From a virus (Duplodnaviria; Heunggongvirae; Uroviricota; Caudoviricetes), in the IMG/VR virus record IMGVR_UViG_2711768037_000009, positions 1-38,628 of that record: a stretch of 38,628 nt of DNA; one strand, written 5' to 3'. The notes beneath the pieces were generated by a model that made no database searches, had not been told where the DNA came from, and saw only the letters and a program-made list of their open reading frames with translations. Made by a program: the position numbers and the translations under genes. Below are positions 1,583 to 16,115 of this stretch, in pieces. Position 1 is the stretch's first letter. The number at the start of each line of letters is the position of its first letter.

Positions 1583-1794
1583 GTTCAACGAAACGTCAAC
1601 GCTTTCTCCCGATTTGGTCTAAAAATTGACGTTTTCACACATCACTTCTTATACCCGTAATCTACGCAGCAGACAGCGCCACAGCGTCCAATTTTCACCA
1701 CAGACGCCCCAACACACTACCAACAAAAACACACGCTCAAAATCTCTCCCGTTGCGTTACACAACCATATAAACAACTTATTTTCAGGCATAAC

Positions 1795-1811
1795 AAAACA
1801 ACTAAATAACA
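1795..1811. repeat. Direct repeat AAAACAACTAAATAACA, copy 2
   Basis: Identical to the word at ~1565-1582. Confidence 0.5.
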
Positions 1812-1830
1812 CATATGCCATTCCCCAAAA

Positions 1831-1925
1831 CAACCAACCTCTTTATGGCAGGCTACCGAAAAGACCCACCTCTTCTCCCAGGCTACCGGACAACCAACCT
1901 AACTTTCACAGGCAATCCGAAAACA
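1831..1925. repeat. Iteron-like tandem repeats, cluster 1 (3 copies, ~30-bp period, core CCTCTT-N5-CAGGCTACCG)
   Basis: CAGGCTACCG at ~1849 and ~1879, degenerate CAGGCAATCCG at ~1909; CCTCTT/CCTAAC at ~1838, 1869, 1898. Confidence 0.5.
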
Positions 1926-2425
1926 TTCATACGCGCGATACCCACGACACGCCATTCCCCAAACAGCGAAGCAACACCTGAACCACTGAAACCCCAACGA
2001 AGTCTGTAACCGCAAGGATTCTCTCAATCCCAAAAGACACGAAACATAACAATCACGGGAAACGCCATTACCCAATACACGAACAACTACAAAAGCCTTT
2101 CACACGCACTCCAGACAAACAACTCAAACACAATAACGAAAGGAATCGCCCACCTGCCATTACTCCACACACGGAGAAGAACAATCACCAAAACGATGAG
2201 AACACCCCATAGAAGAACCACCGCAAAACGAACGAAACCACATACACCGACAGAGAGAACAACACACCCAATTCACCAACAGAATTAGTCGCCGTATAGA
2301 ACGTTCTGGAAGGAGTGAGCATTAACGCCTATAGAGAGGTTGAGACAGATAAAACATAACATGTATAGCGAAGAAGCCAGGTATGTATAACTAAGAAATA
2401 CACAACATGTATAAGCTGGGAGGGA

Positions 2426-3311: not shown

Positions 3312-3441
3312 CCCCAACCAAAGCCAGCATTGCTGGCTTAATTTCATCTGTAGCCGCAGGGAAGAACCTGCATATCGCTCATGCGCCTGATCAATATGCT
3401 TTGTAGCCGTTTTCTTACTGGTATTATTTACGCAATTGAGA

Positions 3442-3454
3442 AAACAAGTTATTT
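3442..3454. promoter_or_regulatory. AAACA-AGT-TATTT motif (one mismatch) upstream of the 3466 gene
   Basis: AAACA-N3-TGTTT family member overlapping the 5' leader. Confidence 0.3.
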
Positions 3455-4344: not shown

Positions 4345-4357
4345 TAACAATTTGTTT
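4345..4357. promoter_or_regulatory. TAACAATTTGTTTT motif, near-identical to the copy at 342-356
   Basis: AACA-ATT-TGTTT followed by the same TCTGC as at 357-361. Confidence 0.4.
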
Positions 4358-4523
4358 TCTGCCTTATCTGATTTGTGAAAATGATTTCACTGAAGCAACT
4401 TAATAAGGAAACCATCATGGACTTGATATCTATATCGAGACGCAGCCTAAAAACGATCTGAATAACGAGGCATCCAGAAAGCAGGTTGCTTACTTCCGTA
4501 AGTTCAATGCGCTCGTTGGGTGG

Positions 4524-4937: not shown

Positions 4938-4942
4938 TATTA

Positions 4943-4972
4943 AGGCCATCAGCATTGGTGGTCTTAAATGAC
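4943..4972. repeat. Degenerate copy of hairpin element AGGCCAYCAG...TGGTGGYCTTAAATGAC
   Basis: ~30-bp similarity to the perfect hairpin at ~5483-5514. Confidence 0.35.
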
Positions 4973-5350: not shown

Positions 5351-5515
5351 ATGGCTGAATTTGCCGCATTAAGTGAGAGTATTACGATGGCAAAATTGAC
5401 CAGAGCGCAGGAGCATGACCTGCGACGCGCAATTTATGATCTTGAAAGAGTTCGTTGCAGCACATCGAAAGCAATGAGATATAGGCCACCAGTTAACGCT
5501 GGTGGCCTTAAATGA
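5351..5515 (+). CDS. Possible small protein (42-54 aa; ATG at 5351 or 5387)
   Basis: Open frame ending in TGA inside the downstream hairpin element; weak RBS. Confidence 0.25.
   Translation: MAEFAALSESITMAKLTRAQEHDLRRAIYDLERVRCSTSKAMRYRPPVNAGGLK
5483..5508 (+). other. Perfect 10-bp-stem hairpin AGGCCACCAG-ttaacg-CTGGTGGCCT; terminator-like but no U-tract
   Basis: Seen directly; related words at ~4943 and ~6200. Confidence 0.45.
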
Positions 5516-5527
5516 CCATCCTGTTCC

Positions 5528-5604
5528 CCGCAGGCTAAAAACACCAACCTCTTACCTCCAGGCAACCGACAAACCTACCTGTTCCCGTCCGGCTACCGCA
5601 ACTT
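5528..5604. repeat. Iteron-like tandem repeats, cluster 2 (3 copies, same family and orientation as cluster 1)
   Basis: GCAGGCTAAAA, CCAACCTCTTACCTCCAGGCAACCG, CCTACCTGTTCCCGTCCGGCTACCG. Confidence 0.5.
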
Positions 5605-5651
5605 ACCACTTTGACGCCTTATTCGTACAACGATAATTAACACCAGCAAGA

Positions 5652-5664
5652 AAACAATTTGTTA
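5652..5664. promoter_or_regulatory. AAACA-ATT-TGTTA motif upstream of the 5685 gene
   Basis: AAACA-N3-TGTTT family, one mismatch. Confidence 0.35.
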
Positions 5665-5684: not shown

Positions 5685-6167
5685 ATGAATTTTATCGCTA
5701 CTGTAAACGCACCCGCACATGGCAATATCGCAGTAACGTTCTCTGACATTGAAAAACGAGTACTTGGTGCATGGCGCGACAATGAGACGGTAGAACTGTC
5801 AGCACAAGAAAAATGCATTATTGCACGTGACATCATTGGTAATCGTCGTTACTCGCGGGTATTTGAGAAAGCGTATGTGGTAAATTCTGGATTCGGAACG
5901 TTCGTCTTTCCGGTGCGCTCCGGGCGATTCTGCCAGTCCAAGCTGATTGAGTTCGCTACGCAGATTTCTGTCTGGATTAAAACTCAATCGTCGTTCAAAT
6001 TTTCCGACGATGAAGCAGTATCGCAGGGGATGCAGATCGCCAACAATGCGATTAAATGCAAAAACATTACGTATGCCGCTGGCGTTGACACATGGAAACT
6101 GTTTTGCGCTAACTTTATGCTGAATGTATACGCAAGCAACCGCATCCACATCCTTGATGGCGTGTAA
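5685..6167 (+). CDS. Hypothetical protein (160 aa)
   Basis: ATG preceded by AAGGA at 8-nt spacing; followed by a terminator. Confidence 0.65.
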   Translation: MNFIATVNAPAHGNIAVTFSDIEKRVLGAWRDNETVELSAQEKCIIARDIIGNRRYSRVFEKAYVVNSGFGTFVFPVRSGRFCQSKLIEFATQISVWIKTQSSFKFSDDEAVSQGMQIANNAIKCKNITYAAGVDTWKLFCANFMLNVYASNRIHILDGV

Positions 6168-8231: not shown

Positions 8232-8756
8232 TTAAAACGGAAGGATTCGTTCAACCCAATCGAAGAAAACAAGTATTTTTCTTCCGTCTTTCAACTTAAG
8301 AGTGACCTGACAAGCATCAACGCCTCTTGATACCCCTTCTATTTCACGACCGTCTGCCATGTAGACCCTTATAGATTGGTCGTTTTGATAAGCCTTGCGA
8401 CATATCGCAAAAAAGTCACGGCGTGATGGCTGATTGTCAACATAGTCTGGATGTATTGTTAGCCTACCTTTGAACTCGCGAGCAATGCCATCGATTACAC
8501 CTGATTCAATTGTGCTAATGCGCTCAAGTGGGAGTCTTATACGATTTTCTTTATCATATGGAAGCGGGCATAAATCTAGCTTATTGCGGGAAGGCATTGT
8601 CCCCTGAACGTACATGCAAAACACCTGACCGTCTTCAAGCGTGACTCTTACAGGAATGTTGTTCTTCCGCCAGAACATAAGTATGTTTTCAGCATGTTCG
8701 TAGTCTCGCGGCCAGACTTCAGCCGGTATGCCGTAGGTGATGTCCAATGTTCTCAT
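8232..8756 (-). CDS. Hypothetical protein (174 aa) with two similar beta-rich segments
   Basis: ATG start; start overlaps the stop of the upstream gene; no domain recognised. Confidence 0.6.
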   Translation of the reverse strand: MRTLDITYGIPAEVWPRDYEHAENILMFWRKNNIPVRVTLEDGQVFCMYVQGTMPSRNKLDLCPLPYDKENRIRLPLERISTIESGVIDGIAREFKGRLTIHPDYVDNQPSRRDFFAICRKAYQNDQSIRVYMADGREIEGVSRGVDACQVTLKLKDGRKILVFFDWVERILPF

Positions 8757-12527: not shown

Positions 12528-12556
12528 GTAACTACTTAGTGGAATGTAGCAATAAA

Positions 12557-13237
12557 ATGGACGTAAAAATCACGATTTTGCAGGTTGATGTTGCCAACCT
12601 TCGCCCGAATACCTGGAACACCAATTCGGTTGGTGCGCAGAATTTCGAAAAACTGAAAGGTTCTATCGAAAAATTGGGCTTTTTTAAGCCAATTTTGGCT
12701 CGTGAGCTTGAAGATGGATTTTTTGAAATCCTCGGCGGCGAACATCGCTGGCGTGCTGCTATTGAGCAAGGAATTTCAACGGTTCCTGTGCTTTCTGTGG
12801 GCAAAATTAGCGATGTCGTGGCAAAACAGATGTCACTGGTGGACAACGAGCGATACGGTGAAGACGACCAAATCGCATTGCAACGCTTCATTGAAGAAAT
12901 TCAGTCAGAACTTGACTATCAACTGTCTGAAATCGCCCCGTATGACGACGAAATCTCGATGGTTTTAGCAAAAGAGGCGGCAATCGACCTTGAAGCACTG
13001 GAGGCGTTGTCTCGTGGTAGTGATGAGCCTGTCGATACCGACAAACGAGAGAAAACCGAACGTGTGGGTGCGGAACATCAGACCATGCGCTTCAAAGTAA
13101 CTTTCGATGCGTCAGATCGTGTTGCAGAAACCATAAAAAACATCATCAAAGAGCAGGCTATTAACACCGGTAATGAAATGGAGAACGCTGGTGAGGCTCT
13201 GGTGTGGCTGGTCGACTACTACAAGGAGCGTATGTAA
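12557..13237 (+). CDS. ParB/Srx-superfamily (ParB-like nuclease domain) protein 1
   Basis: ORF track 12539..13237; ATG at 12557; ParB-box-like GGEHRWRAA. Confidence 0.7.
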   Translation: MDVKITILQVDVANLRPNTWNTNSVGAQNFEKLKGSIEKLGFFKPILARELEDGFFEILGGEHRWRAAIEQGISTVPVLSVGKISDVVAKQMSLVDNERYGEDDQIALQRFIEEIQSELDYQLSEIAPYDDEISMVLAKEAAIDLEALEALSRGSDEPVDTDKREKTERVGAEHQTMRFKVTFDASDRVAETIKNIIKEQAINTGNEMENAGEALVWLVDYYKERM

Positions 13238-13905
13238 TGACCAAAAAGTTTGAAATCGTATATCGCGACCCGGCAGATCTTATTCCCTATGAGATGAATG
13301 CCAAAAAGCATGATGAACAGCAGATCCGAGATCTAGCCGCAGCCATTAAAAAGCGCGGATTTGACCAGCCAATTACGGTCGATAAGAACGACGTAATTAT
13401 TACTGGCCACGGCCGCCGTGAGGCTGCAATTTTTGCTGGACTTGAGCGCGTACCGGTTATTGTTCGCGATGATCTCAGTGATGACGAGGTTCGTGCGAAG
13501 CGCCTTGAAGATAACCGACTTGCCAGCATTGATTACGATGCAATTAAGCTACAGAAAGAGCTTGAGTCGCTTGTTCTGGACGATATCGAGGTTTTCGGCT
13601 TTGAAGAGCGTGAGTTGAATGTTCTCGTTGGCAGCATGACAGAAGAAATGGACACCGACTCGCTAGTTATCGATCTTGGCGAAGAAACTAAACGACAGAA
13701 GGATGAACACACCGAGATCAGTCGCGAAGTTGCAGCGGAAGAAGTACGTGTTGTCGACGTATTGGGCTTTAAAACGCTTCCTGCTGGCTCTGCCATTGTT
13801 GTTGGTGATTTGCTTGCCCACATGGAAGAAATGACGGGAGAAAGCGGGGTAGACGCATTTGTGGCATATGCGGAGAAGATCTCTTCCGGGGAGATGGCTG
13901 CATGA
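13237..13905 (+). CDS. ParB/Srx-superfamily (ParB-like nuclease domain) protein 2
   Basis: ATG overlaps the upstream TAA; AAGGAG at 9-nt spacing; ParB-box-like GHGRREAA. Confidence 0.7.
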   Translation: MTKKFEIVYRDPADLIPYEMNAKKHDEQQIRDLAAAIKKRGFDQPITVDKNDVIITGHGRREAAIFAGLERVPVIVRDDLSDDEVRAKRLEDNRLASIDYDAIKLQKELESLVLDDIEVFGFEERELNVLVGSMTEEMDTDSLVIDLGEETKRQKDEHTEISREVAAEEVRVVDVLGFKTLPAGSAIVVGDLLAHMEEMTGESGVDAFVAYAEKISSGEMAA

Positions 13906-16060: not shown

Positions 16061-16077
16061 TAATTAAACACCCCAGA

Positions 16078-16090
16078 AAACAAGTTGGTT
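16078..16090. promoter_or_regulatory. AAACA-AGT-TGGTT motif upstream of terS
   Basis: AAACA-N3-TGTTT family, one mismatch. Confidence 0.3.
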
Positions 16091-16102
16091 AGCAGATGCA
16101 GT

Positions 16103-16115
16103 AAACAAGTTGTTT
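16103..16115. promoter_or_regulatory. AAACA-AGT-TGTTT perfect palindrome, followed by hairpin AGAGCGC-atggac-GCGCTCT just before the terS RBS
   Basis: Seen directly. Confidence 0.4.

Follow-up and report, generated by a model that had tools for sequence, protein, structure and literature searches.

Two short clusters of direct repeats, 3.7 kb apart, occur in a viral stretch of 38,628 nt (IMG/VR record IMGVR_UViG_2711768037_000009; hereafter the window) and raise the question of what kind of site they form and what reads them. Sequence comparison identified the window as an E. coli SSU5-like phage-plasmid. The region around the repeats shares 93-97% identity with the E. coli phages Cyrano and PhiR41_1 and with plasmid NZ_CP027369.1, and about 70% identity with Salmonella phage SSU5, with 106.7-kb Salmonella plasmids and with IncFIB-typed plasmids of Klebsiella, Enterobacter and Citrobacter. 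In PLSDB, 838 plasmids have a match to the non-coding region of the first cluster (cluster 1). SSU5-like phage-plasmids are very frequent in clinical Klebsiella, E. coli, Salmonella and Enterobacter, and their cargo includes restriction systems and resistance genes. To our knowledge, their lysis-lysogeny control and their lytic replication have hardly been studied, and we found no description of these repeats in the searchable literature.

The first bases of the window lie in the interior of a cargo methionyl-tRNA synthetase gene. After the cargo, the window passes through small early genes and a leftward block to genes for a helicase, two ParB_N proteins and an ABC ATPase, followed by those for terminase and head proteins. 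Typed IncFIB, the element has a Rep_3 initiator. A DnaB-like helicase, a primase and Pol III alpha are encoded by the element itself, with the genes for the first two about 40 kb from the clusters. In PhiR41_1, a complete genome of 108 kb, the clusters are found at 31.0 and 34.5 kb and repA at 104.4-105.5 kb.

Tandem Repeats Finder detected a period-30 array of 3.0 copies at 1833-1923. Direct reading gave six units, three per cluster, in cluster 1 (1833-1919) and cluster 2 (5515-5598), all of them variants of the 26-base two-block motif ACCnACCTCTT-N5-CAGGCTACCG (Table 1). The centres of the two blocks are about 15.5 bp (about 1.5 helical turns) apart, which places the blocks on opposite faces of the helix. 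The first-pass annotation had counted three tandem copies in each cluster; we found that in each cluster two copies are good and the third is degenerate, with the copies 28-31 bp apart in the window. It had located cluster 1 correctly and cluster 2 at ~5528-5604, rather than at the positions given here. Its observation that the clusters share one orientation and are 3.7 kb apart holds, as every unit is on the + strand and 3710 bp separate units 1.1 and 2.2.

Table 1. Repeat units and neighbouring features of the two clusters, in window coordinates.
Feature	Position	Strand	Sequence and remarks
Promoter-like element	1626-1658	+	TTGACG-N18-TATACC; kept in every lineage, L111 among them
A+C-rich, G- and T-poor untranslated tract	1664-2290	+	Defined by composition; holds cluster 1
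Unit 1.1	1833-1858	+	ACCAACCTCTT-TATGG-CAGGCTACCG; both blocks kept in all relatives
Unit 1.2	1864-1888	+	ACCCACCTCTT-CTCC-CAGGCTACCG
Unit 1.3, degenerate	1893-1919	+	ACCAACCTAAC-TTTCA-CAGGCAATCCG
GC-rich hairpin	5484-5509	+	GGCCACCAG...CTGGTGGCC; directly 5' of cluster 2; weak U tail
Unit 2.1, degenerate	5515-5540	+	ACCATCCTGTT-CCCCG-CAGGCTAAAA
Unit 2.2	5543-5568	+	ACCAACCTCTT-ACCTC-CAGGCAACCG; best-conserved unit of cluster 2
Unit 2.3	5573-5598	+	ACCTACCTGTT-CCCGT-CCGGCTACCG
Gene I promoter, then leader palindrome	5609-5663	+	TTGACG ... CGATAAT, then AAGAAAACAATTTGTT
Gene I	5685-6167	+	160 aa, phrog_1641; always directly 3' of cluster 2

The arrays are real and far above chance. The combined pattern has three matches in the window (0.12 expected), and the 10-mer core, with at most one mismatch, has six (1.1 expected), four of which fall within the clusters. 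A two-block scan returned four matches, compared with zero to one in shuffles of 500-nt blocks that retain the local composition. Across the whole PhiR41_1 genome, the two-block scan found exactly the two clusters, both on the + strand. Isolated half-sites outside the clusters occur at chance frequency and inside genes. No inverted copy of the asymmetric unit was found anywhere in the genome.

Both clusters are present at homologous positions in elements of E. coli, Salmonella (SSU5), Klebsiella, Enterobacter and Citrobacter, and cluster 2 was additionally found in Kluyvera, Buttiauxella and the Yersinia pestis plasmid pMT1. Approximately 90 IMG/VR contigs, retrieved by exact pattern, share both cluster positions, and all but one are SSU5-like. 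A logo built from 93 unique units showed 1.1-2.0 bits at most positions of the blocks and 0.2-0.9 bits in the 5-nt spacer, which is pyrimidine-rich and of low information; the units are joined by A-rich linkers. Unit spacing in the relatives has a mode of 31 bp and a range of 28-32. The first two units of cluster 1 have 71-74% identity between lineages, a level similar to that of the conserved promoter-like element upstream, compared with 53-56% for the whole non-coding region. The spacer of unit 1.2 has 4 nt in the window and 5 nt in every relative. Unit 1.3 is retained in the SSU5, Enterobacter and Citrobacter lineages and absent from the Klebsiella lineage. At cluster 2, the second block of unit 2.1, together with an A run, forms the conserved left edge of the module, and the DNA upstream is lineage-specific up to this point. 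Comparing repeat copies across relatives had been suggested as a check in the first-pass annotation; it confirmed that the motif and its two locations are conserved and that, at both clusters, copy number (two to four) varies by gain or loss of whole units. The two arrays and the A+C-rich tract are among the best-conserved non-coding sequences of the family.

L111, which is the most diverged of the relatives found, retains the overall architecture with a gene I that is 50% identical, and it carries the same altered blocks, AACACCACTC and GTCGGCTACC, in both clusters. The exact 10-mer AACACCACTC was found three times in 16.5 kb of L111, twice in cluster 1 and once in cluster 2, and GTCGGCTACC is present in both cluster regions. 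Such a joint change is the strongest argument for one co-evolving reader rather than a conserved host protein, and it points to a single trans factor that probably reads both clusters; gene conversion between the clusters could contribute to it. Neither mosaic plasmids with truncated copies nor searches for remoter relatives of gene I yielded a lineage beyond L111. The idea of arrays bound by one factor at about three-turn intervals, as first proposed, is thus supported by the conservation, the whole-unit changes in copy number and L111. The proteins then named for it (a Rep-type initiator, ParB-family proteins and the small terminase) are not supported.

For a Rep-type initiator, the IncFIB typing and the Rep_3 initiator would make the clusters candidate RepA iterons or a copy-control array. 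The Rep_3 iterons of the element differ from them in sequence (ACCGCTGACAGCATAC), flank repA on either side in about 13 copies spaced by 21 bp, and in the complete relative lie about 40 kb from the clusters by the nearer way round the circle. The natural variant pMT1 bears indirectly on the same point. It has no cluster 1, which is gone along with the early block, beside IS1541, and it retains the replicon with repA, cluster 2, gene I, the FljA-like gene and the ParB_N pair. As pMT1 is maintained with a Rep_3 replicon though cluster 1 is lost, cluster 1, to which alone this inference applies, is dispensable for plasmid maintenance.

A coding repeat was considered as well, given that the period of 30 is divisible by 3 and that an ORF (1815-2009) spans cluster 1. 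It was rejected: the family has a 31-nt period, frameshifting indels of 1 and 2 nt separate relatives with 93% identity, and PGAP predicts no CDS over the 1.56-kb interval, where the ORFs in two phage records differ from each other. A chance product of low complexity is at odds with the composition-preserving shuffles, which do not yield the motif. These three origins (RepA iterons, coding repeat and chance) are already contradicted, and we consider the probability that any of them is correct to be negligible.

Centromere-like or packaging-recognition sites for the two ParB_N proteins (12539-13905) or for the small terminase would be a second way to read the arrays, in keeping with the ParB-family proteins reported at 12.5-13.9 kb in the first-pass annotation. 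The ParB_N domains themselves were confirmed, and their genes accompany cluster 2 in all relatives examined, pMT1 included. The phage-plasmid N15, moreover, has dispersed centromere sites. A link between these proteins and the repeats did not emerge. Both proteins score 43 bits against TIGR00180, below its curated cut-off of 58 for ParB partition proteins, and they are part of a helicase-ParB-ParB-ABC-terminase block (with a DEAD-box helicase) that is conserved as far as Acinetobacter phage-plasmids, which do not have the motif. A separate locus of a small ParA and a 119-aa partner is located about 40 kb from the clusters. The ParB sites known to us are palindromic or box-type, not asymmetric direct repeats of 26 bp, and pMT1 is stably inherited without cluster 1. 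For packaging, terS and terL lie more than 10 kb downstream of cluster 2, and no sequence link connects terS with the repeats. The partition and packaging roles initially proposed are therefore not borne out, and we regard this reading as quite improbable.

The gene I promoter is directly downstream of cluster 2 whatever DNA is found farther upstream, which is a GC-rich hairpin in most lineages and unrelated DNA in others; in SSU5 and Buttiauxella, a divergently oriented gene abuts the cluster. From the end of unit 2.3, TTGACG is 12 nt and GATAAT 33 nt away. The distance from unit to -10 is fixed within a lineage and differs between lineages (63 and 33 nt versus 70 nt). For the best unit of cluster 2, the E. 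coli lineage has 63 nt, compared with 70 nt in the lineages of SSU5 and Klebsiella, so that helical phasing relative to the gene I promoter is not conserved. Homologs of gene I are confined to SSU5-like elements, and its protein has no Pfam or NCBIfam match. Its AlphaFold model (pLDDT 82) gave no significant fold match in PDB and contains no helix-turn-helix; gene I as an autoregulator was rejected on the basis of this confident model.

Cluster 1 lies in a gene-free region of 1.5 kb that contains four or more repeat families and whose strand asymmetry exceeds that of any other part of the genome. The promoter-like element about 170 nt upstream of the cluster was not called by a consensus promoter scan, and its sequence suggests that it is an active promoter. 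The A+C-rich tract that follows (about 0.65 kb) is 40% A, 34% C, 12% G and 14% T. In the homologous 600 nt of PhiR41_1, A+C reaches 0.738, the maximum of that genome (mean 0.50, sd 0.032), and the skew is kept in every lineage, with the sequence only partly kept. The tract also has a second repeat family (GCCATTACCCAATACAC...) in four copies. Downstream of cluster 1, neither the consensus scan nor direct reading found a convincing promoter. We used published transcriptomes of E. coli LF82, a lysogen of Cyrano, which cover the lysogenic phase. One annotated stretch, comprising the promoter-like element and cluster 1 through unit 1.2, is at the read floor in all five conditions, and those samples do show expression of the flanking genes, gene I included. 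It is hence unlikely that cluster 1 acts as an abundant RNA in lysogens.

The explanation we favour, tentatively, is that the clusters are arrays of DNA sites for one putative phage-encoded regulator of early transcription. The arrays would be double-stranded recognition sites for a single sequence-specific protein of the phage-plasmid, several copies of which could be held side by side by sites placed about every three turns, and their role would be cis-regulation in the early (lytic-side) region. Cluster 2 may be an upstream control array that activates or represses the gene I promoter, or alternatively one that insulates this promoter from read-through out of the variable upstream cargo. 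Cluster 1 would put the same factor in the leader of an A+C-rich non-coding unit that is silent in lysogeny, where an occupied array could gate what is transcribed from the conserved promoter upstream. Four results favour a role at the DNA level, namely the fixed place of cluster 2 at a promoter regardless of the upstream context, the modal spacing of three turns, the silence of the cluster 1 region in lysogens, and the lack of RNA structure. What the sequences establish directly is the motif with its two positions, its conservation, its uniqueness and its joint change in both clusters; a protein reader, DNA and not RNA as its target, and a transcriptional outcome are what we infer.

Several observations count against a reading of duplex DNA. 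Pfam domains are absent from the small proteins encoded nearby, a DNA-binding fold is absent from the gene I product, promoter phasing is not conserved and unit spacing is loose (28-32 bp), and there is no convincing promoter after cluster 1. A C-rich, G-poor sense strand is not required by a duplex site and would suit a single-stranded reader. Blocks on opposite faces of the helix are also unusual for a single compact DNA-binding domain.

Some of the same features would be explained if the units were read in RNA, as linear unstructured motifs in C-rich, G-poor leaders that recruit an RNA-binding factor of phage or host. The units might be nut-like sites that render polymerase resistant to Rho in the 0.65-kb tract and carry it past the weak hairpin before gene I, or they might bind an RNA-binding repressor. 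This reading accounts for the sense-strand bias, the composition and the loose spacing, and under it the A+C-rich tract would be a Rho-gated leader. Relative to the genes around them, both clusters are on the sense strand, cluster 1 is placed past a promoter-like element in the C-rich tract, and cluster 2 is itself 40% C and 14% G; high C with low G is the classical signature of Rho loading. The loose spacing (28-32 nt) and the variable phasing to the gene I promoter pose no difficulty for an RNA motif, and the hairpin before cluster 2 is without a U tract, so read-through is plausible.

Rfam 15 gave no match at gathering score over the whole window, and around the clusters only chance-level matches at E values up to 10. 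Folding of both strands of both clusters was no better than that of shuffles (z = -1.2, 0.07 and -1.3). RNAalifold on 15 diverse non-coding regions of 1.3-1.6 kb found no helix with compensatory support that involves the units, and no stable or conserved boxB-type hairpin was detected in or next to them; the likeness of the first block to boxA is limited to 6/7 bases. A 12-bp pairing between unit 1.1 and a purine-rich box (2333-2344) was rejected, as in L111 the box is unchanged although the complementary first block has changed. In SSU5 and Buttiauxella, where the divergent gene abuts cluster 2, sense transcription of the cluster would need a putative extra promoter, and the read floor in LF82 over the promoter-like element and most of cluster 1 holds in every condition. 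We consider an RNA-level role the main alternative, though rather doubtful.

One protein encoded nearby could serve such a role. Among about 25 neighbouring proteins compared with Pfam, PHROGs and NCBIfam, no DNA-binding candidate was found except an FljA-family protein (8232-8756; PF03614, E = 5.7e-81), the sole recognisable nucleic-acid-binding regulator in the vicinity, whose relatives repress post-transcriptionally by blocking translation of fliC mRNA (PMC2652032). At least 19 genes have the palindrome AGAAAACAAnTTGTTT in their leaders, and the leader of gene I can be aligned with fliC leaders over the 3' part of the latter. Judging from these sequences, the FljA-like protein appears better matched to this dispersed leader element than to the repeats, which weighs against its part in the RNA-level reading.

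Other resemblances to flagellin leaders were noted. One is an exact 12-nt match between the minus strand of cluster 2 in L111 and the fliC leader of E. coli; the other is ACCCAATAC, from the second repeat family. We give them no weight, as their orientations conflict and their significance is lost given the number of comparisons.

On the minus strand, the second block reads CGGTAGCCTG, which fits positions 3-12 of the ops consensus (GGCGGTAGnnTG) by direct reading and would imply that host RfaH is recruited to leftward transcription. Closer inspection led us to reject this reading. The two free positions of ops are invariant in the units, essential positions vary, and the first two G residues are missing. 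The cluster 1 of L111 is without GGTAG although the host factor is conserved. In the window, there is no leftward gene or promoter at either site, and the element encodes no paralogue of NusG or RfaH. A leftward RNA would also be C-poor, with no need of protection from Rho. We therefore see very little chance that the units are ops-like sites.

A further possibility is that a phage initiator binds both clusters, cluster 1 as part of a lytic origin and cluster 2 as an enhancer that acts in cis from a distance. An element with its own DnaB-like helicase, primase and Pol III alpha requires a lytic origin, and the gene-free region, with its repeat families, its strand asymmetry and its silence in lysogens, would be a candidate. 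A distantly related Acinetobacter phage-plasmid has a comparable gene-free, repeat-rich tract of 1.35 kb in the corresponding early region. The pair of clusters of one sequence a few kb apart may also parallel ori and crr of satellite phage P4. A split lytic origin thus accounts for the repeat-rich gene-free region, yet the hallmarks of an origin are missing. Near cluster 1, we found no DnaA boxes and no GATC cluster, a single IHF-like match, and no obvious AT-rich unwinding element adjoining the repeats. The helicase and primase genes are distant, and cluster 2 is tied to one promoter and not to a replication gene. Overall, we judge a lytic origin to be improbable.

ParB or terminase sites, ops-like sites, RepA iterons, and a coding or chance origin are unlikely. 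It is conceivable, albeit less than probable, that the arrays are cis sites of an undescribed control system of SSU5-type elements with the A+C-rich tract as its functional core. In one version, the tract would be a giant Rho-loading leader in which a factor brought in at the repeats would license read-through, and the same kind of recruitment would occur again at a site before gene I. In the other, it would be a lytic origin with a distant enhancer. If either is true, the switch would be common to more than 800 sequenced enterobacterial plasmids, including pHCM2 of Salmonella Typhi and, in part, pMT1. The arrays and the tract offer a concrete starting point in the search for the regulator and in efforts to engineer or cure these elements. 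Sites read as RNA in a Rho-loading leader, or a split lytic origin, would add a new example to the few phage control designs.

Several known systems share features with the two clusters. The Rep_3/RepFIB iterons (P1 incC/incA and those of the element's own repA) are likewise tandem direct repeats at integral helical turns, arranged in two groups with variable copy number. The clusters differ from the element's own iterons in sequence, in period (~31 versus 21 bp) and in location, and cluster 1 is dispensable in pMT1. The centromere sites of N15 and sopC of F are scattered, repeated protein-binding sites in genomes with ParB-family genes; those sites contain inverted repeats and are recognised by bona fide SopB/ParB proteins encoded beside ParA, whereas here the units are asymmetric and the sub-threshold ParB_N proteins are found with packaging genes.

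The lambda nutL and nutR sites, each made of boxA and boxB and preceding Rho-dependent terminators, also occur as two sense-strand copies per genome in C-rich, G-poor leaders, and the first block (CCTCTT) resembles lambda boxA (GCTCTT). Unlike nut, the units have no boxB-like hairpin and are tandem, one array is upstream of a promoter, and no N-like protein was identified here. P4 ori and crr have a similar layout, with two clusters of one short direct repeat in the same orientation, a few kb apart, both read as type I iterons by the phage alpha protein. The P4 repeat is 8 bp (TGTTCACC) and its reader is a known primase-helicase. In the present case, the unit is a two-block motif of 26 bp, neither cluster adjoins a replication gene, and a promoter accompanies one of them.

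The direct-repeat operators of temperate phages (sites of the P2 C repressor, the P2 Cox and 186 Apl boxes) and the OmpR/PhoB-type tandem sites of response regulators are asymmetric and arranged head to tail by a promoter, where multiple protein copies side by side control transcription. Their sites are 7-10 bp long and spaced by 10-22 bp (by 34 bp in a relative of P2), compared with 26 bp for the two-block units described here, the second array of which lies in a long untranslated tract and whose distance to the promoter varies by lineage.

In many early genes of the SSU5-like phage-plasmid, the palindrome AGAAAACAAnTTGTTT follows the -10 hexamer and precedes the ribosome-binding site. Its sites are dispersed genome-wide and number at least 19 in PhiR41_1, the complete 108-kb E. 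coli relative. The palindrome is probably the target of a FljA-family repressor, which possibly acts on it at the mRNA level. The window encodes a 174-aa protein of this family (PF03614, E = 5.7e-81) with a weak Hfq/LSM-like match in its C-terminal part, and its gene is kept in all relatives, including Yersinia pestis pMT1. Repression of host flagellin could be an additional role of this protein.

Coordinates of features (in the window unless another sequence is named)
Feature	Sequence	Coordinates	Strand
Methionyl-tRNA synthetase gene, 3' end (opens the window)		1-258	
Leader palindrome	AGAAAACAAnTTGTTT	344-358, 2953-2968, 3438-3453, 4346-4361, 5648-5663, 16074-16114	
Hairpin at left boundary of conserved non-coding block	TTCTATAAG	1470-1492	+
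A+C-rich untranslated tract (0.63 kb)		1664-2290	+
Second repeat family, four copies	GCCATTaCCCAAtACACGGAGAAGAAC	1817-1828, 1951-1962, 2064-2084, 2156-2182	+
GC-rich stretch without PGAP annotation		2460-2800	+
Hairpin module, two copies	TTAAGGCCAcC...GgTGGCCTTAAATGAC	4940-4967, 5484-5509	
FljA-family protein gene		8232-8756	-
Match of L111 (most diverged relative) to the E. coli fliC leader (L147)	GAGCCGACGGGT	L111 7828-7877, L147 191-202	- (L111)
Classical RepA (Rep_3) iterons of PhiR41_1 (103.9-105.6 kb)	ACCGCTGACAGCATAC	L009 3924-4373, 5484-5589	

Gene I lies directly downstream of the repeat array cluster 2, and its leader, in which the AGAAAACAAnTTGTTT palindrome is found, aligns to the 3' part of fliC leaders. 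The second repeat family, conserved across lineages with copies spaced 92-134 nt apart, has the core ACCCAATAC, which recurs identically as a 9-mer in the leader of E. coli fliC. In L111 the diverged units of cluster 2, read as their reverse complement, share an exact 12-nt stretch, GAGCCGACGGGT, with that E. coli leader; its shuffle p of about 0.005 is uncorrected for about 28 comparisons and the match may be due to chance.

The A+C-rich tract (A 40%, C 34%, G 12%, T 14%) keeps its compositional skew in all lineages, and its homologue is the top 600-nt window for A+C in the whole 108-kb genome of PhiR41_1, with a fraction of 0.738 against 0.50 (sd 0.032). The tract contains no called gene and is silent in the lysogenic state; it could, for example, be an origin, a protein sponge RNA or a Rho-loading leader. 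Conservation of the GC-rich stretch reaches the most distant relative. Four GGGAAA(A/C)GG repeats lie in it together with direct repeats of 75 bp and several loops resembling CUUCGG, and the stretch may be a further site array or encode a structured RNA.

The stem sequence of the hairpin around TTCTATAAG is changed in SSU5 and L111 with complementarity retained, and the cargo genes to its left vary among relatives. The methionyl-tRNA synthetase gene is cargo of the E. coli members of the SSU5-like family. Both copies of the TTAAGGCCAcC...GgTGGCCTTAAATGAC module are found where small early operons end; as their U tail is only weak, they may serve as processing sites or as terminators that leak.

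The classical iterons of PhiR41_1 flank repA on both sides, in about 13 copies with a spacing of 21 bp. Yersinia pestis pMT1 (CO92, L146 36915-38542) retains cluster 2, gene I, the FljA-like gene and the ParB_N pair, and IS1541 occupies the expected place of the early block and cluster 1. Acinetobacter baumannii NZ_CP038645.1, a distantly related phage-plasmid, carries a gene-free A-rich tract of 1.35 kb full of ATGTAGAAA-type repeats (L148 12507-13858). It shares the gene order helicase-ParB-ParB-ABC-terminase.
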